DNA of 64,000 bases from Opitutia bacterium (GTDB taxonomy: Bacteria > Verrucomicrobiota > Verrucomicrobiia > Opitutales > T3Sed10-336). The DNA is taken from positions 1 to 64,000 of the forward strand of contig JBJHCF010000004.1 in assembly GCA_050506795.1 (NCBI GenBank), written 5' to 3'. Positions 46,528-64,000 of this stretch are shown here, one piece after another. How positions within the stretch are numbered: the stretch's first letter is position 1; every line of letters begins with the position of its first letter. The notes under the pieces were generated by a model that was not told the DNA's origin, made no database searches, and saw only the letters and a program-made list of their open reading frames with translations. Both the position numbers and the translations under genes were made by a program.

Positions 46528-46581
46528 CTTGGAAATCGTTATTCGTTGACTGAAAGGTATTGCATTTCGACCGATCTGGGT

Positions 46582-48789: not shown

Positions 48790-48882
48790 GGAGAGATGGC
48801 TGAGTGGCCGAAAGCAGTGGTTTGCTAAACCGCCGTACCGCCAAAAGCGGTACCGAGGGTTCGAATCCCTCTCTCTCCGCCA
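48790..48882 (+). tRNA. tRNA-Ser(GCT)
   Basis: GGAGAGA acceptor stem, anticodon arm GTGGT-TTGCTAA-ACCGC, long variable arm, GGTTCGAATCC, 3' GCCA. Confidence 0.96.
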
Positions 48883-48920
48883 TTTGTGATGGGCTTTTGC
48901 CTTAGATTTGCCAAAATGGA

Positions 48921-50282
48921 ATGGCAAATCTGAGAAAAACCATGGCAAAACCTAAGTTCAAGATCACCCCGTTCACCAACCCCAGCGGCCAGCGCGTTTA
49001 CCGTCTGTCTGGCACGCTCAACGGCAAGAGGATCCGTGAGAATTATCCGACTCGCCCCGAAGCCGTTGCAAAGCGTCAGGAATATGAGGTCGAGTGGCTC
49101 AACGACCATCCCGAGGGCCGCACGATCTGGACCACCTTGACTCCTGAGGAGAATCGCGACGCGGTCACCGCAATGAATTCCCTCAAGATGAATGGCGCTC
49201 CCTACTCGCTCAGCTTCGCCGTCAGTTACTGCCTGGAGAACTACCGGCCGCCGGAACAGGAGAAATCGATCAGCGAGGCAGCGGACGAGTATGTCAAGAA
49301 GCGGGACCGCGACTGCGTTCGCGAATTCATCTCCCAGGCGCAATTTCGCTCGATCAAATCCGAGATGCTTTGGCTCAAGAGCAAGTTCGGGAGCACGCCG
49401 GTTTCGGCCATCACCGTGGAAAAATTCCGCGACTACCTCGAAACTCCGCGCAACCGGCCGCGCAGCCGTCTCGTGAAAAAGGAGGTCACCGCTCCCAAGA
49501 CCTGGAACAACCGTCGGGGCCTTCTCTCGACCTTCTGTCTGTTCTGCGTCGAGCGCGGTTACCTCGCGCAAAATACGATCGCGAAGGTTCCCCAATTCAA
49601 GATCAACGGTCGCAAGTCCATGGCGAAAACGCTAACCGTCGATCAGGTCAACGAGCTGATGGAATACCTCGAAGCCTATGACGGGTCACCTATCCGCCGC
49701 CTCAAGGAGCCCCAGCCCGCCGGCTTCCTGGTTCCCTTCTTTGCTCTCGCTCTCTTCGCCGGCATTCGTCCGGATGCGCTCTACGGCGAAATGGGTAAGC
49801 TCCAGCCGGAAGACATCGACCTGAACATGGGCGTTGTCCGGGTTCGGCCCGAAGTCTCGAAGACCAACGAAATGCGCGTGGTGGCCATTCAGCCAAATCT
49901 TCGGCTGTGGTTGGAGAAATATCCGGTGGAAAAGTTTCCGCTTCTCCCGGGAAAGAACATCGTTCGCATCCTCTCCGAGGTCCGCCAGGAACACAAGATC
50001 GGCCATGACGTTCTCCGGCACACTTACATTTCGATGCTGGTCGGCGCTTTTCGTTCGGTCGGCGACGCCGCGCTCCAAGCAGGCAATTCCGAGGCGGTGA
50101 TTCGCAAGCACTACCTCGATTTGAAGTCGGTGGAGGAGGCCGATCAGTTTTGGCAGATCATTCCTGCCGGGACTGAGCTTCCCAAGAACTTCAAGAAAAA
50201 GGACGGTCGATACGCCTTTTTCAACAAACCGGAGAAGGACTCCGAAGGCGCAGAAGAAGCTGAAGAGCTGGCGTCGGTCTAG
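48921..50282 (+). CDS. Tyrosine recombinase/integrase (alternative start 48942)
   Basis: FAGIRP (R), SKT (K), HDVLRHT (HxxR), GNS, KHY (Y). Confidence 0.92.
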   Translation: MANLRKTMAKPKFKITPFTNPSGQRVYRLSGTLNGKRIRENYPTRPEAVAKRQEYEVEWLNDHPEGRTIWTTLTPEENRDAVTAMNSLKMNGAPYSLSFAVSYCLENYRPPEQEKSISEAADEYVKKRDRDCVREFISQAQFRSIKSEMLWLKSKFGSTPVSAITVEKFRDYLETPRNRPRSRLVKKEVTAPKTWNNRRGLLSTFCLFCVERGYLAQNTIAKVPQFKINGRKSMAKTLTVDQVNELMEYLEAYDGSPIRRLKEPQPAGFLVPFFALALFAGIRPDALYGEMGKLQPEDIDLNMGVVRVRPEVSKTNEMRVVAIQPNLRLWLEKYPVEKFPLLPGKNIVRILSEVRQEHKIGHDVLRHTYISMLVGAFRSVGDAALQAGNSEAVIRKHYLDLKSVEEADQFWQIIPAGTELPKNFKKKDGRYAFFNKPEKDSEGAEEAEELASV

Positions 50283-50290
50283 GGATACAA

Positions 50291-50317
50291 GAGGGGCCGG
50301 TCATGCGCCGGCCTCTC
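50291..50317. terminator. Hairpin between convergent integrase and late operon
   Basis: GAGGGGCCGG-TCATGCG-CCGGCCTCTC. Confidence 0.5.
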
Positions 50318-50321
50318 GCTC

Positions 50322-50492
50322 CTACTTATCCAGCTCCTTCCTGATTCGAATGATGAGGTAAACGATCGTGGTGAGGCCTACGGCGATGCCGACGACCAGG
50401 TGAATGCGGTCGAGCATGACCGTTCCGACGGTGCCGAAGGCGCCGATCCAGACGGGGCGGTCGTGGAGGAGAAAGGCGAGTGCTTCTTTCAT
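50322..50492 (-). CDS. Small membrane protein, holin-like
   Basis: 56 aa MKEALAF...; hydrophobic helices with basic C-terminus; ATGA-coupled to the upstream gene. Confidence 0.55.
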   Translation of the reverse strand: MKEALAFLLHDRPVWIGAFGTVGTVMLDRIHLVVGIAVGLTTIVYLIIRIRKELDK

Positions 50493-50983
50493 GCGGTCGA
50501 CGTCGAGGGCGTTGGCTGAAAGAGTCCGATCCGGTAACCCCAGTAGAGGAAACCGGCTCCGGCGATGAGGATGAGGGCAACCGCCGGGAACCAGGTCTGG
50601 CCGAAGATCTGCGCGAGGATCGCCATGAGGATGCCGCCGAGGGCGAGCGTAAGGCCGGTTCGAAAGTGCCAGCCGGTGAGAAGGAGACCGCCGATCAGGG
50701 AGAGGCCGCCGAGGATTGTCCAAAGCGACAAGCCAGCAACCGAGGGAACCGCAACGGCGCGACTCTGGCCGGTGGATGTCGTGATTTCGATTTGGTCCCC
50801 TTTCCGTCGAAGCGTGACATGGGCGGGCGTCTCGGGATTGGCGGGCTGGAGCGTGGCCACGGTGGCCGCTGGAAGGCCGTTTGCATCGTGCAGAGTGACG
50901 GTGGCATGGCCTGGCGGCGTGGGCGCGGTCATGCAGCCGCTGAGGGTGGCGGCGAGGAGGAGGAAAAGGAACGCCGGTTTCAT
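50489..50983 (-). CDS. Lipoprotein with C-terminal transmembrane helices
   Basis: Lipobox LSGC, ~70-aa soluble part, then about 3 TM segments. Confidence 0.65.
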   Translation of the reverse strand: MKPAFLFLLLAATLSGCMTAPTPPGHATVTLHDANGLPAATVATLQPANPETPAHVTLRRKGDQIEITTSTGQSRAVAVPSVAGLSLWTILGGLSLIGGLLLTGWHFRTGLTLALGGILMAILAQIFGQTWFPAVALILIAGAGFLYWGYRIGLFQPTPSTSTA

Positions 50984-51071
50984 GCAACCAGCGTGGAGGT
51001 CGCCAGTTCCCCGGGCGAGCCGGAGAATTAGCTAAAATTGTGCATTTTTAACTACTGCGGCCCAAATGGAT

Positions 51072-51947
51072 TCAGAGTTCGTCAAGGGATTGCCTAAGGT
51101 GGCCCAATGTCTCAACTAGGCTTTCAATGCGGTTAAGATCTCGTTCCGAGAACCGCGCATCGTAGAGGGAATTACCGTCTGCCCCATCAATCCGAGTAAC
51201 CTCAACGGTTAAAACCAAATCGTCGCGATCCCGCGGAGCACTTGCCCACGGTCCGAACATGTTGGGTGAGAGCCTCCAATTGGCTGACTCGCCCGGTTCA
51301 AGTCCTCCCCGAATTGAGTAGTTAAAGGACTCGTCGACCCAAGGCACCGCTCTGCCTGGGGTGGCCAAGACCCCTTGGAAATATGCGCGAGAGATTGCAT
51401 GGCTTGTCTCATTCCGGACCGATAGCTCGATTACAGGATCACGAGTGAAGCCTGTCTCGCTGAATGAAAACCGAGCACTCTCGACAACAAAAGCACGTAA
51501 GCTCTGGCGATCGGACTCGGCTTTTTGCTTCTTCTCCTCCAATTGCTCAAGTTCATTGCGAATATCCTCAATCCTGCGCATGAGGCCCTCACGCTCACGC
51601 TGACGCCTTTCCTCAGCCCGCTGACGTTCGCGTTCGCGCTCTTCTTCGAGGATTCGTTCTCCGGCGGCTAAAATTTCGTCTACTGTTTTCCCGTCGAGGC
51701 GCTCACGCATCCGCTGCTCGGCTGACTCGGGGTTCGCGGCCAAGGAGAAGAGGTTCTCACCTTCAAAAGCAATTGCCAAGAGAGCTGCATCAAACTTCTC
51801 CTGCTCTTCCTCCGAAAGCGAGGCCTTAGCGCGTTCGAGGGAACGTTCCATTGCTGCCTCCGAAGAACCGTCGATGCGGCGAGAGTCACCGCACGCGGTT
51901 AACAGGCATAGTGAAATGAGGGGGCCAAGAAACAAAAGGATTCTCAT
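51072..51947 (-). CDS. Accessory lipoprotein (DUF6694-like N-terminus, coiled coil, beta-sandwich)
   Basis: Lipobox LTAC, IDGSSE..M..SL...LS.EEQEKF, long E/R-rich coil. Confidence 0.7.
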   Translation of the reverse strand: MRILLFLGPLISLCLLTACGDSRRIDGSSEAAMERSLERAKASLSEEEQEKFDAALLAIAFEGENLFSLAANPESAEQRMRERLDGKTVDEILAAGERILEEERERERQRAEERRQREREGLMRRIEDIRNELEQLEEKKQKAESDRQSLRAFVVESARFSFSETGFTRDPVIELSVRNETSHAISRAYFQGVLATPGRAVPWVDESFNYSIRGGLEPGESANWRLSPNMFGPWASAPRDRDDLVLTVEVTRIDGADGNSLYDARFSERDLNRIESLVETLGHLRQSLDEL

Positions 51948-52179
51948 CAGATGTTTGGATTCTGGTTAAGGGACCTACCATGCTCTCCGGATGACCGTCA
52001 AAGGAAAAGGGATCCATCAAGCTGGGGCGGCATCGCCGGGGCGGAGCCCTGGGAGATAGGAGGCGGAGCCGTGTCTCTGCGACCGGGGCCGATCGTCCTC
52101 GCCCGAATGCCGATGAGACCTTTGGCAGAAATCGCGCTGCCATGTTTCACCCCTTAGAAGCAAATTGCGGCTGTAAGGA

Positions 52180-53490
52180 TCAGGCGCGGCCGAGGGTGAC
52201 GTTGTCGTAGTAGAGCGGCGTGTTGGTCTGGATCAGCGAGCCGAGATGGATCGTGTCGAAGGGGCCGGGAGCGTAGGCGAGATTTGTTCCGTTTGGGTCG
52301 AGCTTTCCATCGACGTAAACGTCCAGGCTGCTGTGACGGATAATCACCTCGAACTGATGCCAGCCACGGGAGCGCGGGGCGTCGAGCTGGATCCACCCTG
52401 ATCCGCCAACGTTGCGGAATTGGTATTTCGGGAGGCTGTAAGTCCCGGCAGTGACGGTGTTGTGAAGGCCGGCGGCGAAGATCACGAAAGAGTTGTCGCG
52501 GCGAAGCTCGGCGTATTCGCGGCCGGACTTTGGGTCGCTGGAGTCGTAGGGATCGTAGAAGCGGAAGGACCATTTTAGCGGCGCAGCATCGGTTGCGGAG
52601 ATCGGGTCGAACTGGGTCTTGCGGAGGCCGCCGGAGGAGAAGAGAACCAGGTTACCGGTCGCGAGGTTTTGCGCCGTAGCGACAGGAGCGCCGTCGGCGG
52701 CGCCGTAAGGCGTGTAGCTACCGTCTGGTCGCCACCTTGGGAGAGTCCATCCAGAGGGGCCTTTGTCTCCTTTCTCGTAGGAGATGATGTAGCTGTTATC
52801 GGCGGGCTCGAACCACATGAAGATGTCGTCCCGGCGGAAGCTGGCTCGGTTGTTGAAGAGCCCGTTGTAGTCCCAGGTTCCGTTGCCCTCCTCGGGAGTG
52901 ATGAAGCCGGTGACTTCAAGTGTGCTTCCCGGATAGGCGTTCGGGTCACGATCGAGGATCGAGACCGGGTTTTGGTTGTGCCACGGTTGCGAAGGCTCGG
53001 TCTCGGGCCAGGCCGCGTTAAAGGTGACGGGATTGTCGAGGTCGTAGATCTGAAATGTTTCGAGGAAATGCGGCCAGCGGAGGTCGATCATATCAACCTC
53101 GGCGGACCAGAGCATCGTGTCGTCGGGTTCCCCAGTGACGTGGAGGGATAACGCGCCGGGTGCGTCAGGCGCGGGAATAAGCGAAACTTCGCCACCGCTC
53201 CCGACCGGGCCAAGCTTTTGCTGGGCGCTCAACGAGATCACACCGGCGTCGTTGCGGGCAAGAACGAGAATTGATGCTCCGTAGGTGGTCGTGAAGGCCT
53301 CCGTGCGACCGGTGACGCGGATGCTCAGCAAACGCACCGCCCCGGCCGGGATGGTGAGGCGGTGGCGACCGGAGATAAGGAGTTCGGTCGCCTCGGTGCC
53401 ATAGCTCACGCCATGGAACTGGATTGGTTTTGTGGGCGTGCTGGCGGGAACAACCTCGGGCGGGCGCGGTGGAATGAGCGGCGGGAACAT
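52180..53490 (-). CDS. Putative virion spike/receptor-binding protein
   Basis: 436 aa beta-rich modular protein downstream of capsid genes; C-terminal ConA/LamG-like GWHQFEV....LDVYVDGK; no signal peptide. Confidence 0.5.
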   Translation of the reverse strand: MFPPLIPPRPPEVVPASTPTKPIQFHGVSYGTEATELLISGRHRLTIPAGAVRLLSIRVTGRTEAFTTTYGASILVLARNDAGVISLSAQQKLGPVGSGGEVSLIPAPDAPGALSLHVTGEPDDTMLWSAEVDMIDLRWPHFLETFQIYDLDNPVTFNAAWPETEPSQPWHNQNPVSILDRDPNAYPGSTLEVTGFITPEEGNGTWDYNGLFNNRASFRRDDIFMWFEPADNSYIISYEKGDKGPSGWTLPRWRPDGSYTPYGAADGAPVATAQNLATGNLVLFSSGGLRKTQFDPISATDAAPLKWSFRFYDPYDSSDPKSGREYAELRRDNSFVIFAAGLHNTVTAGTYSLPKYQFRNVGGSGWIQLDAPRSRGWHQFEVIIRHSSLDVYVDGKLDPNGTNLAYAPGPFDTIHLGSLIQTNTPLYYDNVTLGRA

Positions 53491-53539
53491 TGGCGAGAAT
53501 TGGAGATTGGAAATTTGAGATTGAAGATCGTGTTCCGGG

Positions 53540-53833
53540 TCAGAGGAGTTGGGTGATTCGGAGAATCGCGTCGGCGGCTGTGGCGCGGATGAATCTGGCC
53601 TTGGTGTAGAGTTCCCGGGGCCAGAGCACTGCGCCTCCTCCGACCGGGAAGTAGTGGCCGTGATTGATGGTCGGCGTCGAGCCGTCGAAGGTCACGCGGA
53701 CGGGTCCGTTGTCGACGGAGACGAGAATTTGCCAGGTGTCCGAATGGAGGGCTGGCAACGCCACGGAGGCGCCCGACACCGCAACCGCGATGTCGGGGCC
53801 TTGTGGGTTTGGTTTAACCAGGTGGGCGCTCAT
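53540..53833 (-). CDS. Small beta-rich putative virion protein
   Basis: 97 aa MSAHLVKP...VRVTFDGSTPT..HG immediately after the capsid gene; start reassigned within the longer ORF call. Confidence 0.6.
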   Translation of the reverse strand: MSAHLVKPNPQGPDIAVAVSGASVALPALHSDTWQILVSVDNGPVRVTFDGSTPTINHGHYFPVGGGAVLWPRELYTKARFIRATAADAILRITQLL

Positions 53834-53844
53834 GGCAGGCAGGC

Positions 53845-54762
53845 TCAGGTGACGCTGACCCGGCGGGCGCAAACCTTGGAGGTTACCTTGATGTCTTCGG
53901 TCCAATCCACCGCGAGGATGTCCGAGCGGTTGCTTTCGGCGCGGTAGATCCGGACGATGTCCACTCCCCCGCCGCGGGTGCGGAAGGTTTTCATGAACGA
54001 GGGATCGTAGACGCTCGGCGCTGCCTGGGCGATGAACAGGTAAAGCTCCGAGCCGATGATGTTGACGGCGTTCTTCGCCTTGCCGGGCTTTGCCGTGTCG
54101 GCGGACATGACGCCGACGCGGATGTCCAGGTTCGGGTTGAGCAGAAGGCTCGCGAACTGGGTCAGGGTGACGCCGACGCTGGCCGCTCCCGGGAAGCGTT
54201 TCACCACGGCCGGGTTGTGCCGGATGCGGCGCCACGCCGGAAGACCGATCGCCATGCGATTGGGCATCTGGCCGGTCTGGGTGGCCAGCTCTTCGATGAG
54301 TTGGTCGAGCTCGGCGACCGGGTCGTTGGTGTTGCTCGCGCCGTCCCATTGCCCCATGCCGCTGACGGCGGGAACGCTGGAAGCGGCGATCGAAAAGACC
54401 TTCGCTTCGTGGGCGACCTTGGCCCCGGAAACGAGGGTCCGGGTCTTGGCCTTTTCGAGGCCGAGCGGGTCGCCTTCTCCCGCTTGCCGGCGCTCGTGGT
54501 CGTCAATGGCGATTTCGAGCGCGTTCGGGTTGCAGTTGAAGAACGGATCCTCGGCTTCGAACTCCAGCCGGCGGGCGGGACCGCCGATGGCGCGGCGCGT
54601 ATCCGGGTTCTGGAACGCGTTTTTGTCGGAGAAGTCCTTGTATTGCCCGTTGGCGGACTGGACAACGACTTCCGGCGCGAGGAAGCTGGCGAGGGACGGC
54701 GAGCCGTCCTGCGAGAGCCCTCGGGCGTAGTTGGTGAGGGTGATGTTGAATTTAGAGGACAT
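53845..54762 (-). CDS. Major capsid protein (HK97 fold)
   Basis: 305 aa; LTNYARG..LAPEV.V, WD....DP, PNRMAIG..AW..IRHNP; position after protease and decoration genes. Confidence 0.8.
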   Translation of the reverse strand: MSSKFNITLTNYARGLSQDGSPSLASFLAPEVVVQSANGQYKDFSDKNAFQNPDTRRAIGGPARRLEFEAEDPFFNCNPNALEIAIDDHERRQAGEGDPLGLEKAKTRTLVSGAKVAHEAKVFSIAASSVPAVSGMGQWDGASNTNDPVAELDQLIEELATQTGQMPNRMAIGLPAWRRIRHNPAVVKRFPGAASVGVTLTQFASLLLNPNLDIRVGVMSADTAKPGKAKNAVNIIGSELYLFIAQAAPSVYDPSFMKTFRTRGGGVDIVRIYRAESNRSDILAVDWTEDIKVTSKVCARRVSVT

Positions 54763-54814
54763 AGCTGTGGAATTTCAGATTTGAGATCGGAGATTGGAAA
54801 CGAGTGGTTGCGGG

Positions 54815-55213
54815 TTACGGTGCGATGAGGACGGCCTCGATCTTCTCTTCGGCGACACCGCCCTCCAGCGCCATGGCAACGCGTGGCGTGGTCGGTGCGT
54901 CGCTGCTGGCGACGAAGGCAACTTCGTCGTTGTCTTCGAAAAGACCGAGAAGCGTGCCGGTCTGGGTGACCGGGCCGAAGAGCTTCACGCGGACGGTTCC
55001 GGAGAAGCCTCCCCGCGCCGGGGCGACGGTGACTTGCTCACCGGCTTTCCCGCCTTTGAGAAGGACGCCAAACGGCGTCTGCTCGGCGTTGGTCAGAAGA
55101 GTGATCTCGTTCTGACCGGTGACGATGACTGGATAGCCCTCCTTGCCGGTAAGATCGATGGCTGCCTTGAATGGCAGGATAGCGTTTTCGCGAACAATGC
55201 CTACTTGGCTCAT
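54815..55213 (-). CDS. Capsid decoration/cement protein
   Basis: 132 aa; A..DL..K.GY.V, FGVL...G.AGE.V.V, A.ALE......IEA.L. Confidence 0.7.
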   Translation of the reverse strand: MSQVGIVRENAILPFKAAIDLTGKEGYPVIVTGQNEITLLTNAEQTPFGVLLKGGKAGEQVTVAPARGGFSGTVRVKLFGPVTQTGTLLGLFEDNDEVAFVASSDAPTTPRVAMALEGGVAEEKIEAVLIAP

Positions 55214-55231
55214 AGCTGTGGATTCCTTTCT

Positions 55232-56350
55232 TTAGTTGAACAGTTCCGGGGCCTCGGCCTGGGCCTTGGCGAAGATGGTGTCGAAGGTGGCGGCCGGGTG
55301 AGCGGCGCGGAGATCGTTCAGCTTTTTGAGCTGAAGGGCCTCCTGGTTCTGGACGGGGCCGGTGCCCGCATCGCGTGCGGTGACGATGGTCGCGAAGGCG
55401 GGATTGACCGGAAGGGCCTCCAGGGCCTGCACGGCTTTCCCTTCATCGCGGATGAGAGCGTCGACCCAAAAGGTCTTGGCGTTTTCGTCCTTTGGCGCGA
55501 CGCGGCCGGCCTGAATGGCGGCATCGACGCGGGCCTCGGCTTTGGCTCGGATGGCGTTGTCACGCTCGGTTTCGAGAGCGGTCAGGCGTTCCTTCGCCGC
55601 CGCGAGATCGGCGCTGCTGGATTGCAGCGCGGTAACTTTGGCTTTCACCTGGGCGATGATGTCGGCTTCCTCCGTGGCGGAGGCCTCGACCAGCCCGAGT
55701 GTCACCAGATTCTTCAGTAGTTCTTTCATGGTTACGTGGTCTTCAGTTGCGGGTTGTGGATCTTGTCCCTTGGCGAACAAGGGCTGGATTCGTTTGAAGG
55801 CGGCGCGGTTTACAAGTCCGCCCATGTTGGTTTCGCTCCCGATGACGCGGCCTGCGGCATCGAGGAGAAAAGTCGGAGAAAAGCGCCGAAAGGCGCGGTC
55901 CTGGATGGCTTTCTTGCCGACGCCGGACCATTCGATCTTGGCGCGAACGCCGCCGGTCTTCGGGTCGTCGCCTCCCCAGAAGATTTTGACCGGCCATGCC
56001 GCGGCCTCGCGGTCGTCGTGATTGAAGTCGAAGAAGGGCTTGTCCTCGGCCCCGGCTGCGGCCAGCGCAAGCTGGCGGGTTAGCCAATCGGAGAGCGCGG
56101 TTGCCGTGGCCTGGCTGACCTCCACGTCGAGTTCGACCGGTTTGCCGGCGCGGGAGGCGCGAATGCGGTGACGGCCGGGCGGCATGTATTGGATCTCTTC
56201 GGGAAGTTGGTCCTCGGCCGGCTCTGGAAGAGCGACGGAGAATGCAGCTTTTACGGGCTCGCCCTTGGGCGGCGCGTAGGCCATGACGCCGTCGGGGCCT
56301 TCGGTCCATCCGGGATTGGAGGTTGGGGAGTTGTGATCGTGTGCGGTCAT
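55232..56350 (-). CDS. Mu gpI-like prohead protease with C-terminal scaffold
   Basis: MPPG, DFNHD...AAAW, IEWS..G...I..RAFRRFSPTF, GGLVNRAAF; helical C-terminus VDAAIQAGRVAP. Confidence 0.85.
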   Translation of the reverse strand: MTAHDHNSPTSNPGWTEGPDGVMAYAPPKGEPVKAAFSVALPEPAEDQLPEEIQYMPPGRHRIRASRAGKPVELDVEVSQATATALSDWLTRQLALAAAGAEDKPFFDFNHDDREAAAWPVKIFWGGDDPKTGGVRAKIEWSGVGKKAIQDRAFRRFSPTFLLDAAGRVIGSETNMGGLVNRAAFKRIQPLFAKGQDPQPATEDHVTMKELLKNLVTLGLVEASATEEADIIAQVKAKVTALQSSSADLAAAKERLTALETERDNAIRAKAEARVDAAIQAGRVAPKDENAKTFWVDALIRDEGKAVQALEALPVNPAFATIVTARDAGTGPVQNQEALQLKKLNDLRAAHPAATFDTIFAKAQAEAPELFN

Positions 56351-56640
56351 TTCGGTTTCCAGATCAGAGCGATAGAACAGCGGCAGTTGGGATGAACGGG
56401 GGGAAAGCGTGTCCAATCCTTGCCGTAAAGAGTGCCGTGGAGAGCGCCGCATACAGAGCAAGTGCCTTCATCGAAGTCAGTGATCCAGACGTAGGTCTGG
56501 TTTGGATCGAGCGGAGGCGGCGGCTCGCCGTCGGGATAGGTGTAGAACCATCCGTCAGGGCCTTTAACCCAACCGGGATGGCGTTCCGATTCCCGAAGCG
56601 GTTCTTCCGCGTGTAGTGCTTGTTTGGCGACGTCATTCAT
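56347..56640 (-). CDS. Miniature Mu gpF/SPP1 gp7-like head morphogenesis protein
   Basis: W...D..TCSVCGALHG..Y...FPPVHPNCRCS; only 97 aa; coupled to neighbours. Confidence 0.75.
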   Translation of the reverse strand: MNDVAKQALHAEEPLRESERHPGWVKGPDGWFYTYPDGEPPPPLDPNQTYVWITDFDEGTCSVCGALHGTLYGKDWTRFPPVHPNCRCSIALIWKPK

Positions 56641-58019
56641 TCAGTCCCGGGTCGAGGGTGAAGGGATTTTGGATTTTCGATTGCGGATTGCGGATTTGGA
56701 TTCGCGGGTGGGTTGTAGAGCACGTCCTCTTTGCCTGGAGCGGGAACCTTGTGGCGTTCGTAGAGCCACTGGCGGGAGACCGGCAGGGCCATATCGACGA
56801 AGAGTAGCTTGTCGCGCTCGACGAGCTCCTTGTCACGGGTAAGGCGCGGGATCTCGACTTCGATGTAGGGAAGCTCTTCGAGGTCGCCGTAGTTGAGCTG
56901 GATGATGGCGGGAATGAGCTGGTGATTGAGAACCTCGGCGACGTGGTTGGCGTAGCCTTCAAAGAGGTCGAGTTCGACTTCGCGGTGAACGCGGCCAAGA
57001 GCTTGCGTGCCTCCGCTTGCGGGAGTGTCGGACGTGAGAGTCTGGCCGAGGAAAAGAAGGTCGCATGCCTTGTCGGCGATGATCATCAGGCGCTCGTTCG
57101 GATCAGTGGGACCGGCTACGCCCGGAACGATGCCGTTGGACATGATGTTGATGTCGGTCCCTTTCGGGAACGCTCCCCAGGCGGATGCTCCCATCTGCTG
57201 GAGCATGTTGGCGATCAGTTGAACCTGACTGTCGGGGATGTGCTCGTCGTAGGTGGCGTAGCGGAGCGGGATCCCGAAAAGCTCCGTTTTCGAAAGCATC
57301 CACTCATAGCCAAGGAGGCGACCGAGCCAGAGCGGAGCGAGGGCGCGAAGCTGGGCGCAGGCGCCGGGGTTCGGAATGGTCGGCGGAAAGACCGAGAGAA
57401 GGAACTTGTTCGGGTAGCGGTCAAACGAGTGTGCTTCGTGGCGGTTTCGCTCCGGGTATAGCATCAGCCGGCCGGCGTGGGGATTGTGCATCGAGATGTC
57501 GAAGCCGAGGCAGGAGTAAGGAACGCGGCGCGTGCCGGTCGGGAGGATGAGTCGGTCACGAATTGCCCAATCAACCTCCAGCACGGTGACGCCCACGGCG
57601 ATGGAATCGACGAGGTTGCTGATCGTTTGGGCGAGGTTGATCTTGTTTTCGGCGAGATTCGTCGCGCCGCCGTGGAGAGCGGTTTCGATGAGGGAGGCGC
57701 GTTCGATGGCGCTGGCGGTTGGCTCCTTCCCCTTCGGACTCCATGGCTGAATGTTCCATGGGAGCTTGGTGACACTGACCTTGATCTTGTTGAGGTTCGA
57801 CCGGAGGCGCGGCCAGGTGTCGAACATGATCGAGAAAAGCTCCTGCTGACGCTCAAGGTCTCCCTGCAGTCCGGCGTCGAGCATGGCGCCCATGGTGTCG
57901 GGGTCGATGGAGCGACCCGAGAATATGTGACGGAAATCGAGGCCGGAAGGCTGGATCACCGGCTTGAGGAGCTTCCGTGGAGCGGCGTCTTTGGCTTTCG
58001 TGAGAAACGGGATTCTCAT
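56637..58019 (-). CDS. Portal protein, Mu gp29/DUF935-like
   Basis: GDL..Q.ELF, G..VLEVDW, E.FG.P.R...Y, LGQTLTS...GG.QALG.VH.EV, LN.QLI. Confidence 0.88.
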   Translation of the reverse strand: MRIPFLTKAKDAAPRKLLKPVIQPSGLDFRHIFSGRSIDPDTMGAMLDAGLQGDLERQQELFSIMFDTWPRLRSNLNKIKVSVTKLPWNIQPWSPKGKEPTASAIERASLIETALHGGATNLAENKINLAQTISNLVDSIAVGVTVLEVDWAIRDRLILPTGTRRVPYSCLGFDISMHNPHAGRLMLYPERNRHEAHSFDRYPNKFLLSVFPPTIPNPGACAQLRALAPLWLGRLLGYEWMLSKTELFGIPLRYATYDEHIPDSQVQLIANMLQQMGASAWGAFPKGTDINIMSNGIVPGVAGPTDPNERLMIIADKACDLLFLGQTLTSDTPASGGTQALGRVHREVELDLFEGYANHVAEVLNHQLIPAIIQLNYGDLEELPYIEVEIPRLTRDKELVERDKLLFVDMALPVSRQWLYERHKVPAPGKEDVLYNPPANPNPQSAIENPKSLHPRPGTE

Positions 58020-59392
58020 CAGTTACGCCCTCCAAAGGTTGCGCCCGCCGTGTAGATCGAGCGGAAGCGGGTTGGCGTCGGGACGAACCGCGAGGGATTG
58101 CCGCCGATCTGGAAGGCGTTCGGTTTTGGCGCGGATCCGGTTCCGCCGTGGCGGGCTGCGGCATGCAGGGCCAACGCGAGGGCGGTGGAGCGGTCGGCGT
58201 GGCCGTCGGCCGTTCGTGCGGCGGTGTATCGAATGTTTCCGGACGGGGAAACGATCCGTTGCAGGCTGGCCAGATCGTCGCGCAAGCGTGCGTCGAGAGG
58301 GATTTTGATCGTGCCTTCCTGGAAGTGTTTCTTGGCGCGAATGAACAGCTCGCGTTTGCTCTCCGCAGAAAAGGTAACGGGGTCGAGCTTGTAGTCGCCG
58401 AGGGTATCGGCCAGGTGCTCGGAAATCGGTCCGCCGATACCCGTCGCGTCGATGGCGGAATAGGTGGCGCGTTGCAGGCGCGGCGTGAGAGCCGCTTCCT
58501 GCTCCGGGAAAGGGACGCCGTCGAGGATTAGGATTTCGCGGGTCCAGAACGTGCCGTTGACCGCTTCGACCGTCCAGCAAACGGTGAGGTCGCGCTTGCG
58601 GCCGATGTCGACGCCGACGAAAACTGGGTTTCCGGTGAGAGCGTTCCAATCGTGGGAAGCAGCGGAATCCTCGGCAGCAGTGATGAGATCGCGGGGGAAG
58701 ACCTGGGCGCTCTCTGCCATGAACTGGCACTCGAACTCCTGCGACCATCCATCAGGATCGTTCAAGTTGGCGCGAAGCTCGTCGATGTTGACGGCGAGTC
58801 CGGCCTCTGCCGCATCGTAGATGGTGGTTTTGTGACGGGAGAAGTCGGCTCCGTTTTCCCACAGGTCGAAGTATTTGTTGTTCATCCCGGCCGGCGTGGA
58901 GATCACGCGCAGCTTGAGCCGACCGCGAAGGGGATTGGTGATGATCGGATAAACCGCCCTCCAGATGTCCTCGGGCTTTTCGTGGAAGGCGAACTCGTCC
59001 AGGACGAGATTGCCGGAGTAGCCACGGGCGGTGGAGGGATTGGCCGGGAGCGCGATTAGACGAGCACCATTGGGAAAGCGGCACTGGCTGGCTTTCGTTT
59101 CGGGGCGGTATTCCTGGCCGGTTTCGAAGGAGATCGCATCGCAGAAGACGGCGGCGGCCTGGTGGACCTTGGCCATAAATTCGAGAGCCTGCCGTTCACC
59201 GGCGGAGAGGATCACCCAGTCGCCACCCGTTTCGAGTGCATCGGCGACGACCTCGAACGCGGTCGCGAGCGATCCGCCGATTTGCCGGGATTTGAGCCAG
59301 ATCTTGAAGCGGGTCCGGTCGTTGACCCAGCTGCGCTGATACGGGAGCAGGAGGTCGAAGGGAGATACCTTCAATTTCGGACGTTTGCTCAC
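58019..59392 (-). CDS. Terminase large subunit, Mu gp28-like
   Basis: LLPYQ..W, KSRQIGGS Walker A, LVLDEFAF Walker B, ISTP.G, GVDIGR..D, DATGIG, HADR. Confidence 0.92.
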   Translation of the reverse strand: MSKRPKLKVSPFDLLLPYQRSWVNDRTRFKIWLKSRQIGGSLATAFEVVADALETGGDWVILSAGERQALEFMAKVHQAAAVFCDAISFETGQEYRPETKASQCRFPNGARLIALPANPSTARGYSGNLVLDEFAFHEKPEDIWRAVYPIITNPLRGRLKLRVISTPAGMNNKYFDLWENGADFSRHKTTIYDAAEAGLAVNIDELRANLNDPDGWSQEFECQFMAESAQVFPRDLITAAEDSAASHDWNALTGNPVFVGVDIGRKRDLTVCWTVEAVNGTFWTREILILDGVPFPEQEAALTPRLQRATYSAIDATGIGGPISEHLADTLGDYKLDPVTFSAESKRELFIRAKKHFQEGTIKIPLDARLRDDLASLQRIVSPSGNIRYTAARTADGHADRSTALALALHAAARHGGTGSAPKPNAFQIGGNPSRFVPTPTRFRSIYTAGATFGGRN

Positions 59393-59889
59393 TCCTTAGC
59401 TCCTACTGCTCCAAGTCGGTCGCGCCAGCTTTGGAGAATTTCACGCTGGTCGGCCTGGTTGATGTTAACCTCGGTCTTGACGAGGGCCGTCGGGCGGTCG
59501 GCGTAGACGTCCGGCTTGTGGCTCTTGAGGAGGAAGATCAAGCAGGCGTCGGAAAACTTGCGCTTGTATCCACAAAGGTTGCCTTTGATGTCAAAGACCG
59601 GCTCTTCCCAGCCGTCGACCGCACGGCGATGGAGCTCCTGTTCGGCGGATTCGATCCGCTGGACGTTCTTAACGCGGTCGCGTTCAAGTTGGGCGGCCTG
59701 GAGGCGCGGCGTCAGTTCGGGGCGACGGGTGAGGTTCCTGTAGAAGTTGCGCGGATTTAAGCCCTCGCGCTCAATAGCTTCGTAGGTGGGTTGGCCGTCG
59801 AGGATGTTTGCGAGGACGCGATCAAAAAGCGCTTCCGAGAATTTCGAAAGCCTGCCGGCTCGTTTTGCTACTGCCGTTTGCCTTGCCAC
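59389..59889 (-). CDS. Terminase small subunit
   Basis: N-terminal HTH, E.EL.RRAVDGWEEPVF...YKRKFSD..LIFLLK..KP..Y; overlaps terL start. Confidence 0.75.
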   Translation of the reverse strand: MARQTAVAKRAGRLSKFSEALFDRVLANILDGQPTYEAIEREGLNPRNFYRNLTRRPELTPRLQAAQLERDRVKNVQRIESAEQELHRRAVDGWEEPVFDIKGNLCGYKRKFSDACLIFLLKSHKPDVYADRPTALVKTEVNINQADQREILQSWRDRLGAVGAKE

Positions 59890-60029
59890 GAATTAATGGC
59901 ATGACATACGGGGGGCTAGGACAACTTGGGAAGTTGTGTAAAAGTTGCTGGATTTAACTGTATTTGTGCACGGTCGCGAAAACCGGAAAGTTCGTGGCCA
60001 TGTTCAGGAGAAAAGGTAGGTTGTGTGTG

Positions 60030-60506
60030 ATGTCTGAAAAATCGAGCAGGTGTTGTGATGAGGCGTCCAAAGGTCCCTTCGATGAAGTTCTGGGCTGTCC
60101 TCGTTGTGGCCGCAAGGGTCGCCCGGTCTCCGAATTGACGGTAAAGCAGCAGGTAGCACCGGAACATTTGGAGGCGGCAAGCGGCGAAGGGAATCAGTTC
60201 TGCGGGACTCCGGATTGCGCGGTGGTGTATTTTGTCGCTGGGGGGCAGGTCTTCGAGCAGAAGGATCTACGGCAGAAAGTTGGGTTGAAGGACCGTTCAG
60301 ATCCGTCCCCGGTTTGCTACTGCTTTGGGTTTACAAGGAGGATGGTGGAAGATGAGGTTCGGTCGACTGGCAGGAGCACGATTCCGGACCGCATTGCCCG
60401 CGAAGTGAAGGCAGGAAACTGTGCGTGTGAGGCGCGGAATCCACAGGGGAGTTGTTGCCTTGGGAATGTGACGGCGGCGGTGAAAGAGGCGGAACGTGGG
60501 GGTTGA
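60030..60506 (+). CDS. CopZ-N-like Zn-binding/BFD-like [2Fe-2S] metallochaperone
   Basis: CPRCG, FCGTPDC.VVYF, PVCYCFG, CACEARNPQGSCCLGNV. Confidence 0.85.
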   Translation: MSEKSSRCCDEASKGPFDEVLGCPRCGRKGRPVSELTVKQQVAPEHLEAASGEGNQFCGTPDCAVVYFVAGGQVFEQKDLRQKVGLKDRSDPSPVCYCFGFTRRMVEDEVRSTGRSTIPDRIAREVKAGNCACEARNPQGSCCLGNVTAAVKEAERGG

Positions 60507-60509
60507 TCG

Positions 60510-62490
60510 TTGTTGGACCCTCGCGGGGCCATAAACGCCGCGACGTAAAAACGCGTGTAGAGGCGCGGAGCGCCGCTGGCAACGACGAGCGGGCGTTAGC
60601 CCGCGAGGAGGCGCAGCGAGGCCGTTGTCGGCCGAGCGGAGGCCGCGGGGCGAGGCCGCGGAACTGGGGGCGCGGAGCGCCTAGGCGTTCTATTGGCGCG
60701 GCGAAGCCGCTGGTGATTGCAGGCGCGATAGCGCCGTGCGAAGCTGCGAAGCAGCGTAGCGAAGGGCGCTGCCAGGGGCCGCCCCAGGCGCTGGCTGAGC
60801 CAGCGCGTCAGCGCGAGGCGAAACAGCGCGGGGCCACCGCGCCGGGAGGCGGGGGGAAGGCGCCCCTTCCATTCACATTAAGGGGCGCCGCCTGGCGTCG
60901 AGGAGATCAACGGTAGCGATAGCGAGTGAAACGGGGGAGGTTCGCGACGGCGAGGGTCGTGTGGCCGTTCCGCCGACCAGGGCGGGGGCTGGGGGATATA
61001 CTGATTTCAGGCCCCGAGCGAAGCGAGAGCGAATGCGTGGGCCGTGCAACGACGAGTCTTCGAGGAGGCGCAGGGAGCCTTAGCGACCGAAGTTCGCCCG
61101 GGTTAGGCGGGCGAAACTGGGGGCCGGTCCGGATAGCGGCTGGTGAGGGCTCTGCCACAGACGGGTCCCGGGTGGATGGGGTGAGCCCTCGCTGCCTGCG
61201 CCGGGGCGGCCTAGGCCCTACTCTACTGGAGCGAAGCGACAACTGACTCGAGCCCCCGGAGCGGAGCCGGAGCAGACGCCCAGTCCCGCAAGCGCACATG
61301 ATCATCATATGTCAAAAATCCGCCGGAAGAAGGAATACCTGGACTGATGGAGGAAAAGTGAACACGTCAGGATCTTCGGCATATGATCCTCATGTGCGGT
61401 CCCGCTTTTTGGGACGAACTGGAGGGAAGCAGGAAGCATGACACCGGCTTGCCGGTGGCGCGATGCCTGCGAGGGCGTCTGTTCCGGCGGAGCGGAGGGG
61501 GCTTTCCGGGGTTGGGTGTGAGTGAGCTTGCGAACGAACTGGTAGAAGTTTCGAGCGGGAGCGAGCGTCAGCCTTCCCGGCGATTGAGGGTCCAAAGCGG
61601 TCGGCAGCGCGTCGCCGGGGCGAGGCGGATGGGTTGGCGGAGGGCGTTTCCCGGCGTGGCGCTGCTGGTGACTTTCAGCGCCGGAAGGAGCGGTCTGAGG
61701 CGGAGTCTTCGGAGCCTCTGTCCGCGACTCGGCGCCAGAGGGGCGTTCGATTGCAACCGGGGCGAGCAGTCGCTGGCGGATGGTGACCAGAGCGTAACGG
61801 AGCGTCCGGCGTAGCGCAGGGTGGAGCGTAGGGGTGCAGTAGTCCGGTTGCCCGAAGGGTCGCGTAACACGAGGGGACGCGGTGAGCGAAGCCTGTCGCC
61901 GTTAGGCGTCTGGCGAAGCAGCGGCCAATCGTGTTACGCGCCGGACTTCTGCATCCCGAAGCGGAACCCGGAGCGGAGTCGGAAAGCGGCGTGGAGCGAC
62001 GGGAGCGATCGGCCAGCGTCTGCGGTTGGATTGTCCCGAACCGAGCGACCGGAACAGTCGCTCCGGATGCGAGGTATCGAGCAGAAGGAGTGTCTGTGGA
62101 GGGAGCGGCCGGATTACCCGTCAGGGTTGGCGAGGGCGTTCGATTGGAACGGGATCGAGCAGTCTCGGGCCCGCTGCGAGGGAGACCGGGCGAGCGATTA
62201 GCCGCCCAGGTTCGACTAAGCGAAGGGGCCGAGTCTGCGGTTGGATTGTCCGAGGACGAGCGACCGGAACAGTCGCTCTGGAGTGAGGAACGAATGGAGG
62301 AGCGTCTGTGGAGGGAGCGGGATTGCGCCCGTCAGGGGTGGGACGTTGACTTGCAACCGAATCGAGTGGTCGCTGAAGGAAGGGGCGGCGGCGCTAAGGG
62401 CCGTTGCTGCCTTTGGCAGCTGATGGCCCGTGCGGCGACGAACCGACCGGAAGCGTCCACGGTTGGATTACCCGGGGCCGTTCGCTCCGT
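60510..62490 (+). other. ~2 kb non-coding, highly structured region (ssDNA element or large ncRNA)
   Basis: No credible ORF; nested long-range inverted repeats, GNA-loop hairpins and a ~215-bp internal duplication. Confidence 0.7.
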
Positions 62491-62955
62491 TTATTGCACG
62501 CCGTGGCGGTTAGCCGCTTGCTCCTCGCGGGCATGTTCCGCGAAGCTATCGGCCAAAGCCAAGACCTCTTCCGGGGTTGGGCTTCTATCGGTTTCAGAGA
62601 AGGCCACCGGACATACCAGCCAGTGAACCGCACGCAAAAGATGGTCGGAGATGAGGGAGGCTGAGCGGCCACGAACCGCAAATTCCCCAGTGTTGAAAAG
62701 CTCCATGTGACGAGACAAATACGTGCAGACCGTGGCAATTGCCGAACCCCGCTCCAATCTGTCGATGTCGTTCGAGTAGGTCTCGTGCATGTAATCTCTG
62801 ATCTCGAGGACATCCGTTACATAATCACGCTTTGTTCCTTCCGGACAAGGACGCCTGACCGCTTCAAGATCTCTCACAAATTCGGAGAACGGATACTGGT
62901 AGCGCGAATTGGCCACTGCGGAGCTCTTCTGACTGTCGCTTTCTGCTCGATTCAT
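62491..62955 (-). CDS. Hypothetical protein
   Basis: 154 aa from MNRAESDS; protein-like composition; same strand as neighbours. Confidence 0.55.
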   Translation of the reverse strand: MNRAESDSQKSSAVANSRYQYPFSEFVRDLEAVRRPCPEGTKRDYVTDVLEIRDYMHETYSNDIDRLERGSAIATVCTYLSRHMELFNTGEFAVRGRSASLISDHLLRAVHWLVCPVAFSETDRSPTPEEVLALADSFAEHAREEQAANRHGVQ

Positions 62956-63016
62956 GCGGATTGAAGATGTGTCCCCTCGCGGGCAAGGCAAACCTTTGTT
63001 GAGGGCGCTGCAGCAA

Positions 63017-63289
63017 CTACAGGCGCTTGCGCCAATCGGGATTCCTGGCAATCCAGTCGAGGGCGGCGGCGAGCGTTGTGCGGTTGGCGGGCATTGGGAA
63101 GCCGGCTCTGCGCATTCGATAAACGTAGGTGGGATGATGTTTCAATTGCCAGGCCAGTTCCTTGGCAGTGAGCAAGGGTCCGGTCGTGAGGAGATCGACG
63201 GAATTGAGATTCTCCGCGTCCCGCTTCGTCGATGCGTGGCGTCGCTCGATAGAATTCTGGGCTTCGGATTTGAGATTGGAAGTGGTCAT
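63017..63289 (-). CDS. Small HTH DNA-binding protein (AlpA/excisionase-like)
   Basis: LLTAKELAWQLKHHPTYVYRMRRAGFPMP...ALDWI. Confidence 0.7.
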   Translation of the reverse strand: MTTSNLKSEAQNSIERRHASTKRDAENLNSVDLLTTGPLLTAKELAWQLKHHPTYVYRMRRAGFPMPANRTTLAAALDWIARNPDWRKRL

Positions 63290-63377
63290 TGCGAACTGGA
63301 GATTTGAGATTCGAGATTTTGGATTTGAGAAATGCCCTCTCTCGGAGGGTGGAATTGGAAAGTTCCCTGGCCAGTCT

Positions 63378-63469
63378 CGCGACAGTGACACTCCCCTAAA
63401 GGGGAGGTGTCATGTGTCGCGGTGACGGGTTTTGCGATGTGTCGCAATAGGTGTCGCGCAAAGTGTCGC
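63378..63469. promoter_or_regulatory. Putative replication origin: palindrome plus GTGTCGC iterons
   Basis: GTGTCGC at 63414, 63439, 63451 and 63463; imperfect inverted repeat 63378-63421. Confidence 0.65.
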
Positions 63470-63501
63470 GGAGAGTCTGGACGGAATTGATCGACCATGG
63501 C

Positions 63502-63999
63502 TTATGCGACGATTTCTTCGCCTTTTTTGGTGAGTTTGTAGCCGTCTTTGCCGGTTCGAAAATAGCCCTCTGTCTTTCCTTTGAGCAAAACGCGCTGCAG
63601 GGAGCGCTTTGAACCGGCGTCGGGACCGCCGAGAGCATCATGGATTTCGCCTATTTTTTTTGCTCCCTCGTGGATCGCGCCCGCGACTTCCGCGAGGCTA
63701 AAGTTGGCGTTTGATCGCTTGCCTTCGACGTCGTCTTTCCATGCCTGGAGGTCGAATGTCGGGTCGATGCCGTAGAGCATCGTCTCTTCGGAGAGCTTCA
63801 AACCGACGGGATCGAAAGGCTTCGCGTCGTTCGATTTTCCGCAGGAAACAACGATGCGGCTCGGGTCGTCCGGATCGGCGGGGGCGATGTTGATCTGCGA
63901 GCGGCAACCCGAATAAAGCGCCTTCGAGCCGAGACCGAAGTTGGATTTATCCCACCCCACCGCCTGGGCGATGTTCTGCCGGCCGGTGCGCCCGTGATG
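63502..63999 (-). CDS. C-terminus of AAA/RepA-type (SF4-like) helicase or primase-helicase, truncated by window end
   Basis: Frame open to the edge: HHGRTG...GLGSKALYSGCRSQINI...CGKSN, followed by a winged-helix-like C-terminus. Confidence 0.7.
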   Translation of the reverse strand, partial: HHGRTGRQNIAQAVGWDKSNFGLGSKALYSGCRSQINIAPADPDDPSRIVVSCGKSNDAKPFDPVGLKLSEETMLYGIDPTFDLQAWKDDVEGKRSNANFSLAEVAGAIHEGAKKIGEIHDALGGPDAGSKRSLQRVLLKGKTEGYFRTGKDGYKLTKKGEEIVA

Positions 64000-64000
64000 A

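Follow-up and report, generated by a model that had tools for sequence, protein, structure and literature searches.

The DNA stretch analysed here, 64,000 nucleotides of an Opitutia bacterium contig (assembly GCA_050506795.1, contig JBJHCF010000004.1; G000:C4:1-64000, below 'the window'), contains the left half of an integrated element, the rest of which lies on the same contig. The element encodes a Mu-type phage head and packaging module and has no recognisable gene for a neck or a tail. An original prediction, made from the letters of the window, had placed an integrase next to a tRNA-Ser gene and a single minus-strand run of genes from terS to the major capsid protein (MCP) beyond it, and ARAGORN, Pfam and PHROGs found all of them there (Table 1). 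The genes it described between MCP and integrase, for proteins of 97 and 436 aa, two lipoproteins and a 56-aa membrane protein, were present as well. It had also suggested reading past position 64000 for attR: an exact repeat of the 28-bp att core lies at C4:80885-80912, which gives an att-to-att length of 32,028 bp, and genome-wide no further match that long was found. In an Rfam scan the tRNA was the sole match.

From attR towards the tRNA, the element carries a P1B ATPase gene and CusA-MFP-TolC cargo (8.7 kb), two uncharacterised genes of 441 and 399 codons, and then genes for an SSB-like protein, a PD-(D/E)XK exonuclease, a RusA-like resolvase, a helix-turn-helix (HTH) protein, PolA, a primase, an AAA helicase and an AlpA-like protein. 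A mostly non-coding stretch with a CopZ-like insert leads to the head genes from terS to MCP, after which come p97, p436, the two lipoprotein genes, m56 and the convergent integrase gene. Part of the early region had been anticipated: the AlpA-like HTH is a phrog_66 member. The supposed iterons, by contrast, proved to be long, widely spaced, degenerate repeats rather than classical short iterons, and the layout is not that of a minimal satellite of the phage-inducible chromosomal island (PICI) or P4 kind, the AAA helicase, primase, PolA, resolvase, exonuclease and SSB-like genes making up a phage-like early region.

Table 1. Features of the element and its integration site in the window (positions are those of the window)
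Feature	Position	Strand	Evidence or remark
tRNA-Ser(GCT), host gene, integration target	48790..48882	+	ARAGORN, Rfam
att core, 28 bp, tRNA 3' end	48857..48884	+	exact copy at G000:C4:80885-80912
Integrated element, left half	48857..64000	.	runs on to attR, G000:C4:80885-80912
Tyrosine integrase, 453 aa	48921..50282	+	phrog_1, E 8e-24; R, K, HxxR and Y motif positions present
m56, small membrane protein	50322..50492	-	no family match (Pfam, PHROGs)
lp164, 164-aa lipoprotein, C-terminal membrane segments	50489..50983	-	
291-aa lipoprotein, DUF6694/phrog_7468, moron	51072..51947	-	none found in relatives
p436, unknown 436-aa protein	52180..53490	-	not conserved in clade
p97, all-beta jelly-roll/cupin-like sandwich	53540..53833	-	AF2 pLDDT 94
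Major capsid protein, 305 aa	53845..54762	-	phrog_1005, E 7e-39; PDB 3bjq profile match
Capsid cement/decoration protein, 132 aa	54815..55213	-	weak family matches; position conserved
Mu gpI-type protease/scaffold	55232..56350	-	PF10123, E 1e-15
mini-gpF, Cys/His domain	56347..56640	-	PF04233, TIGR01641; separate gene, ATGA overlap
Mu-type portal, 460 aa	56637..58019	-	PF06074, E 2e-58; Mu and related portals in PDB
Terminase large subunit (terL)	58019..59392	-	PF03237/PF17289; ATPase and nuclease motifs present
Terminase small subunit (terS)	59389..59889	-	phrog_4044, E 1e-16
zf-CopZ/BFD-like metal-binding cargo gene	60024..60506	+	inserted upstream of terS
Conserved ~110-bp GC-rich non-coding motif	60810..60924	-	only in architecture-A members, 330-620 bp upstream of terS; no Rfam match
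Degenerate direct repeats, ~215 bp apart	62004..62480	.	29-64 nt, 73-83% alike
Unknown protein, weak integrase-SAM-like match	62491..62955	-	E 0.018
AlpA/excisionase-like HTH	63017..63391	-	phrog_66; conserved in architecture A
AAA_25 replicative helicase, 3' end	63502..64000	-	PF13481

The original prediction rested on the absence of connector, tail and endolysin genes. Neither Pfam (30 element proteins) nor PHROGs (25) returned a neck, tail or lysin family, and profiles built from the neck and tail genes of tailed relatives matched nothing in the element, so that no tail gene was found beyond the window up to attR; these profiles also detected no adaptor or tube in the whole genome. Terminator-profile matches in the genome fell on a short C-terminal stretch of very large host proteins and were judged spurious. 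The missing neck and tail thus stand, but not the weight given to the endolysin, as 102 selected proteins of four tailed relatives gave no lysin match either. Among the 30 element proteins, Pfam showed no HNH match, and no transposase or MuB was seen, MuB matches occurring only in the tailed relatives G732 and G032.

MCP searches yielded 217 loci, 188 of them with distinct MCP DNA, and by these sequences the family is one of the Opitutales (Verrucomicrobiota). Clustering of downstream proteins revealed a Mu gp36-like adaptor (phrog_195; Mu gene product J in PDB) at 41 loci, every one with an MCP less than 60% identical to that of the window. Neck and tail genes were counted with the relatives' profiles at the 84 of 188 loci that have at least 3 kb downstream of MCP. 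None of the 39 loci with an MCP at least 60.5% identical had a match, against an adaptor at 37 and some neck or tail gene at 39 of the 45 others; with at least 9.5 kb downstream, the adaptor counts were 0/23 and 26/30. The high-identity loci, whose MCPs range down to 61% identity to the window, form a single clade in the MCP tree, which was built by quick search only (39 of 101 rows, SH-aLRT 98), as well as in the portal tree (19 of 74 rows, SH-aLRT 99), and in both trees this neck-less clade is nested among neck-bearing Verrucomicrobia phages. Two checks proposed at the outset are thereby answered: the tail-less synteny recurs in related genomes as a conserved clade, and relatives with a full tail operon lie solely outside it. 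Eight neck-less rows fall outside the clade. Two (L180, L186) are too short to reach their group's adaptor, and one (L158) has a long open reading frame (ORF) with, by eye, an adaptor-like start. Three others (L087, L094, L103) are isolated protease-cement-MCP modules among host genes, with neither terminase nor portal, and are candidate remnants or encapsulin-like domestications; the last two are L241 and L244. Among 50,697 isolated-phage records, the best MCP matches listed reach at most 27% identity, and all 57 matches stay below 60%.

The portal-tree sister group comprises G666 (a tailed phage of 35,771 bp integrated at tRNA-Leu), a prophage co-resident in the carrier genome G723, and marine tailed phages. 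In the latter, MCP is followed by a p97 homologue, a LamG protein and an m56 homologue, and then by adaptor, terminator and tube; the order in the window resembles this one and ends just before the adaptor position. The lost set is that of the tail-joining genes (adaptor, terminator, gpG-like, tube), and the retained set that of the head. Within the clade, two architectures occur, one with a convergent integrase at the capsid end, as in the window (architecture A), the other with the integrase first and cargo after the capsid genes. Most architecture-A members read MCP, lipoprotein, m56, integrase. Replication modules vary among members, adaptor profiles found no match in the clade, and its members have no receptor-binding or ejection protein in common. 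Clade-level MCPs occur in 6 of 401 Opitutales genomes, and the carrier with complete genome record CP011265.1 has two copies (L080, L081).

A derived form of the portal also unites the clade. In 40 of 42 clade portals, a gpF Cys/His domain replaces the C-terminal helices, a fusion absent from all 23 marine tailed portals and all six other aligned tailed portals. The window is an exception in that portal and gpF are separate genes, and a second contig, assembled independently from possibly the same data, has identical letters. At its N-terminus, mini-gpF is like the protease encoded beside it, pointing to a split that evolved. A short Pro-Gly-Trp...Gly-Pro-Asp-Gly motif is common to the two N-termini (genes at 56347-56640 and 55232-56350) and was unseen in inspected relatives; it could reflect a duplication or a packaging signal. 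Upstream of terS, the conserved ~110-bp motif is a candidate pac site or late control element.

Judged from pairwise ratios of nonsynonymous to synonymous substitutions, the head genes are under purifying selection: clade medians are 0.19 for MCP (85 loci), 0.16 for terL (37), 0.18 for terS (33), 0.22 for the portal (44), 0.25 for the protease (65), 0.49 for the cement protein (72) and 0.39 for m56 (36), values that are rough, as pairs are non-independent, synonymous divergence is near 1 and frameshifts are uncounted. In-frame stops were found in 2 of 37 terL genes, the other aligned parts being free of them.

Both att sites were located in 8 of the 13 elements examined, the contig or record ending first or no repeat being seen in the remaining five. 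The bounded elements measure 32.0, 33.3, 33.8, 36.5, 36.6, 37.1, 37.2 and 37.4 kb (the 33.8-kb element has a 22-bp att with two mismatches, the 37.2-kb one a single mismatch), and their sites are tRNA-Ser (three anticodons), -Pro, -Leu and -Glu. Core (15.7-23.3 kb) and cargo (8.7-20.9 kb) are anticorrelated (r -0.86, n=8), and a spread of total length equally small arose in 0.1% of permutations (p 0.001, n=8), a pattern drawn from eight related, non-independent elements with cargo boundaries set by eye. Tailed relatives are of similar length (G666 35.8 kb, G734 38.9 kb); this shared ceiling suggests that element DNA still goes into full-size heads. Cargo of the window element consists of the TolC-MFP-CusA (RND) pump and P1B ATPase at G000:C4:72146-80684, plus zf-CopZ. 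In three bounded relatives cargo matched SspABCD-FGH, CBASS, a type I restriction-modification system and PD-Lambda-5, and no tail family was found among their 47 scanned proteins. Near attR, the elements of G724 and G729 both end, by eye, in a gene resembling a serine recombinase plus two of ParB type, so that the cargo encloses another mobile module.

One member of the clade differs in form. Loci L228 and L136 are two circular permutations of one element and map as a 15,845-bp circle. Besides a head module with two cement genes, this circle carries DnaB and ERF-like genes and others resembling those for SSB and exonuclease, and neither an integrase nor any neck or tail gene was seen in it. 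Two copies of this circle would make ~31.7 kb, near the family size range. Its relative L135 has three cement genes.

The account that we consider probable, if well short of secure, is that these elements are satellites of Opitutales that form their own capsids and are as long as a prophage. A single loss would have cost them the entire neck and tail, and a helper would now supply adaptor, terminator and tail. A tyrosine integrase would insert the element at a tRNA 3' end, as the att repeats found at tRNA genes for Ser, Glu, Leu and Pro indicate; its own replication module, the genes of which are present, would serve excision and replication; its own terminase would fill a full-size, probably T=7 head, the T number and the packaging being suggested by size while the genes and the selection on them are observed. 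Adaptor, terminator and tail would come from a tailed relative among the Verrucomicrobia phages that shares the cell; the group sister to the clade by portal sequence (G666, the marine tailed phages and the co-resident prophage of G723) offers candidate helpers. The space freed by the tail operon would then have been taken up, to head capacity, by defence and fitness cargo, a cause proposed for an observed pattern. The missing conserved receptor-binding candidate, together with the architecture-A run from MCP through lipoprotein and m56 to integrase, argues against autonomous infection and favours a satellite, and the defence-type cargo is typical of satellites. Of 401 Opitutales genomes, 153 have an adaptor gene, among them G474 of the host's family; many of these genes belong to a separate cluster described below. 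Of 9 carrier genomes, 2 have one (G723, G724). One co-resident prophage whose adaptor was considered as partner for a clade portal belongs to a distant portal lineage.

Several observations weigh against this account. The adaptor gene is absent from the other seven carriers (G000, G294, G264, G171, G721, G722, G725), two of them complete, so that any helper must be an incoming phage. Capsid-forming PICIs (cf-PICIs) and the Mulch/Flayer satellites keep their own adaptor, which makes its loss unexpected in a tail pirate. The large replication module and the holin-like and lipoprotein genes imply more autonomy than is usual in satellites, one clade member maps as a 15.8-kb circle, and the size pattern comes from few, related elements. 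In the single sequencing run that holds the element, and that may be its source, contig depth over the element (about 10-26) does not exceed that of a normal flank-like level (flank about 15), with no attP evidence, although contigs cannot show induction. The same run has variants of integrase and head genes, 90-95% alike, on other contigs (window 48857-49005, 55230-55376, 57921-58085), pointing to related elements or strains that coexist in the sample. The run is labelled a mine tailings metagenome, and the element carries heavy-metal cargo.

In Mu, the head is T=7, and gp36, the adaptor, enters the clip of the portal and may double as stopper (PMC11915804, accessible in part), so that a filled Mu-type head without an adaptor needs closure from elsewhere. 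A less likely alternative is that the closure is the element's own: a lineage of portal-terminase double-stranded DNA elements without neck or tail, integrated (32-37 kb) or circular (15.8 kb), would seal a full-size HK97-fold head by the fused gpF domain, a conformational plug or a membrane protein, and deliver DNA without a tail, for instance by vesicles, by membrane release through m56 and a lipoprotein, or by host uptake. The adaptor is indeed gone from every member, 40 of 42 clade portals have gained the gpF domain while none of 23 tailed ones has it, most carriers have no resident helper, the circular member has no integrase, and the window retains a jelly-roll protein and a possible fibre. 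Against this reading, no receptor-binding or ejection protein is common to the clade; some bounded members (G724) have lost both m56 and the second membrane gene; and the C-terminus of the Mu portal may be cleaved by protease I (PMC11915804, same part), in which case the fusion may merely deliver gpF into the head. Hosts without a wall were ruled out: penicillin-binding proteins were found in all five carriers tested, and subdivision-4 Verrucomicrobia possess peptidoglycan (PMC5303756, accessible in part). The original prediction had left the choice between a satellite and a tail-independent particle; that the element is conserved, lacks a tail and brings its own head genes is borne out, and the sequence leaves both readings standing, with the satellite favoured.

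Somewhat less likely again is that the heads serve the host rather than the element's spread, either as decoys that sequester a helper's adaptors and tails and so interfere with phages, or as containers resembling a gene transfer agent (GTA), while the element moves by other means. This would fit the defence-rich cargo, the contig depth, which gives no sign of induction, and the apparently domesticated head-neck cluster elsewhere in Opitutales, a sign that domestication of this phage family does occur. The patchy distribution (6 of 401 genomes), the several tRNA sites, the occasional presence of two copies per genome and the convergence of lengths on head size, which fits packaging of the element's own DNA, speak against it.

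That cluster, separate and mostly single-copy, lies amid housekeeping genes in many Opitutales, including genomes of 0.7-1.0 Mb, in the order terL, portal, protease, cement, MCP, adaptor, terminator, followed by a small gene, a gene of ~550 aa, a hub-like gene and one of ~200 aa. It is found at L272:4900-15900 (G402), L278 (G406), L282 (G454) and L283 (G472), and partially in L273, L277, L274 and L281; adaptor frequencies by group are 32/34 (f10), 19/23 (f78), 12/17 (f74) and 11/14 (f86). The four small or clustered genomes tested gave no tail-tube match, the tube matches of G501 lying elsewhere, and the cluster is a candidate domesticated GTA-like particle with a very short tube or none. Our literature search found no description of it.

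Two further explanations fare poorly. It is very improbable that the element is a complete virus with a short tail, its neck and tail proteins having diverged beyond recognition: for several element proteins (p436, the lipoproteins, p399, p441) no family was found, but several members leave no room, with 0.1-1 kb and one or two small membrane genes between MCP and integrase or identifiable cargo, and the same profiles readily detect neck genes in relatives at just 30-35% MCP identity. Equally improbable, and largely refuted at family level, is a decaying prophage or one-off tail deletion, for although some members have broken genes (the terL stops; frameshifts in L042/L043 and L039), isolated remnants of the same phage family exist (L087, L094, L103) and the fusion is split in the window, one loss is common to a clade with MCP identities down to 61% and purifying selection, in two architectures plus a circular form, at differing integration sites and with conserved size; the earlier judgement that this is not simple decay is upheld by that shared loss, the selection and the common fusion.

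The genes between MCP and integrase were to be examined by profile and fold searches, which succeeded for p97 and yielded no usable fold for p436. The p97 protein, restricted like p436 to few clade members, is homologous to the gene right after MCP in tailed marine relatives (HHalign 92.6%). Fold searches with p97 gave nothing at Z >= 8, the best matches being cupins (Z 7.8) and the PM2 spike P1 (Z 7.1); they listed no adaptor or stopper, which does not exclude one, and the protein is all-beta, unlike the adaptor profile. By position only, p436 might be a head fibre or lectin; attempts to establish a fibre by structure or homology failed (single-sequence fold pLDDT 31; Atlas viral leads all sub-0.9), no longer homologues were found, and HHalign against the LamG protein of tailed relatives was negative. 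The m56 gene is present at 27 of 39 clade loci, has as its homologue in tailed relatives a 50-aa gene that precedes the adaptor gene (HHalign 89.8%), and is a holin-like candidate by position and size only. The topology of lp164 appears spanin-like, and HHalign found no homology to lipoprotein or membrane genes of relatives at the same position. On the host side of the tRNA, 44452-47928 encodes a sucrose-phosphate synthase/phosphatase-like pair and an MscS channel, genes of osmotic adaptation.

How the family relates to described systems was judged against published accounts that were accessible in part, and the comparisons hold for those parts. The original prediction had framed the element as cf-PICI-like. 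The cf-PICIs measure about 10-18 kb, encode their own adaptor and connector, which set tail specificity, and an HNH protein, with holins excluded, and the single structure described has a head of 240 subunits, of T=4 size (10.1101/2022.09.08.507074, 10.1101/2025.02.11.637232, PMC10085698). They share with the Opitutales family an integrase, an AlpA-like regulator, replication genes, MCP, protease, portal, terS and terL, the want of a tail operon and defence cargo; the integrase, AlpA/MerR-type regulator and primase-replicase of the element are counted as analogous modules. The Opitutales family differs in its length of 32-37 kb, its Mu-type portal/gpI/gpF head, its lack of adaptor, connector and detected HNH, the holin-like gene that it often keeps, and its life in Verrucomicrobiota. 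Only the 15.8-kb circle fits the cf-PICI size range, the bounded relatives reaching 33.3-37.4 kb. With no adaptor or connector, twice the size and a phage-scale replication module, the window element falls outside the cf-PICIs, though it may work like one. MulchRoom and MiniFlayer have their own head-to-tail adaptor, small heads and no primases, and one integrates while the other does not (PMC10690885). They resemble the Opitutales family in having their own head and terminase, in helper dependence, which for that family is proposed, and in integrating and non-integrating forms, comparable to its integrated and circular members; they differ from it in that it has no adaptor, apparently full-size heads and its own replication genes. 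VEIMEs, marine integrative elements that parasitise phages, some in Verrucomicrobia, are at most 16.8 kb long and have no MCP (PMC9618062), unlike this family with its MCP and full portal-terminase packaging machine, and small HK97-fold mini genomes (PMC13669383) are likewise tail-less but have no portal. A gene transfer agent is a poor parallel for an element that is patchy (6/401), uses several att sites and has its own integrase and replication genes.

Tycheposons are a further, loose analogue. Related by descent are Mu and Mu-like Verrucomicrobia phages (G732, G032; the tailed integrating G666; the marine G734), which share the lineage of the head module and are similar in genome length, the portal and adaptor profiles matching the Mu portal and Mu gene product J in PDB. 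The family departs from Mu in its site-specific integration by a tyrosine integrase at tRNA genes, with no transposase or MuB seen, in the loss of the genes for gpG-like protein, adaptor, terminator, tube, tape measure and baseplate, and in a gpF of which a single, portal-fused domain remains. Our literature search, in which subscription papers were largely outside scope and supplements of satellite or virome surveys could list members, returned no description of a neck-less Opitutales family. The family is real, conserved and apparently undescribed: by the favoured account it is a new form among capsid-forming satellites, and tail-independent particles would make it a category of its own. Either a helper closes a foreign head or the portal holds DNA without an adaptor, and both bear on how tailed-phage heads are sealed. 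A full-size head seems to have been kept, and about 9-21 kb of former tail space has apparently been turned over to anti-phage and metal-efflux cargo, which would make the family a large-payload gene shuttle for Verrucomicrobia. The capsid-forming satellites in the accessible literature all retain their own adaptor; the Opitutales family goes a step further, the whole neck having been lost, and with tailed ancestors at hand the transition from phage to satellite can be traced gene by gene.

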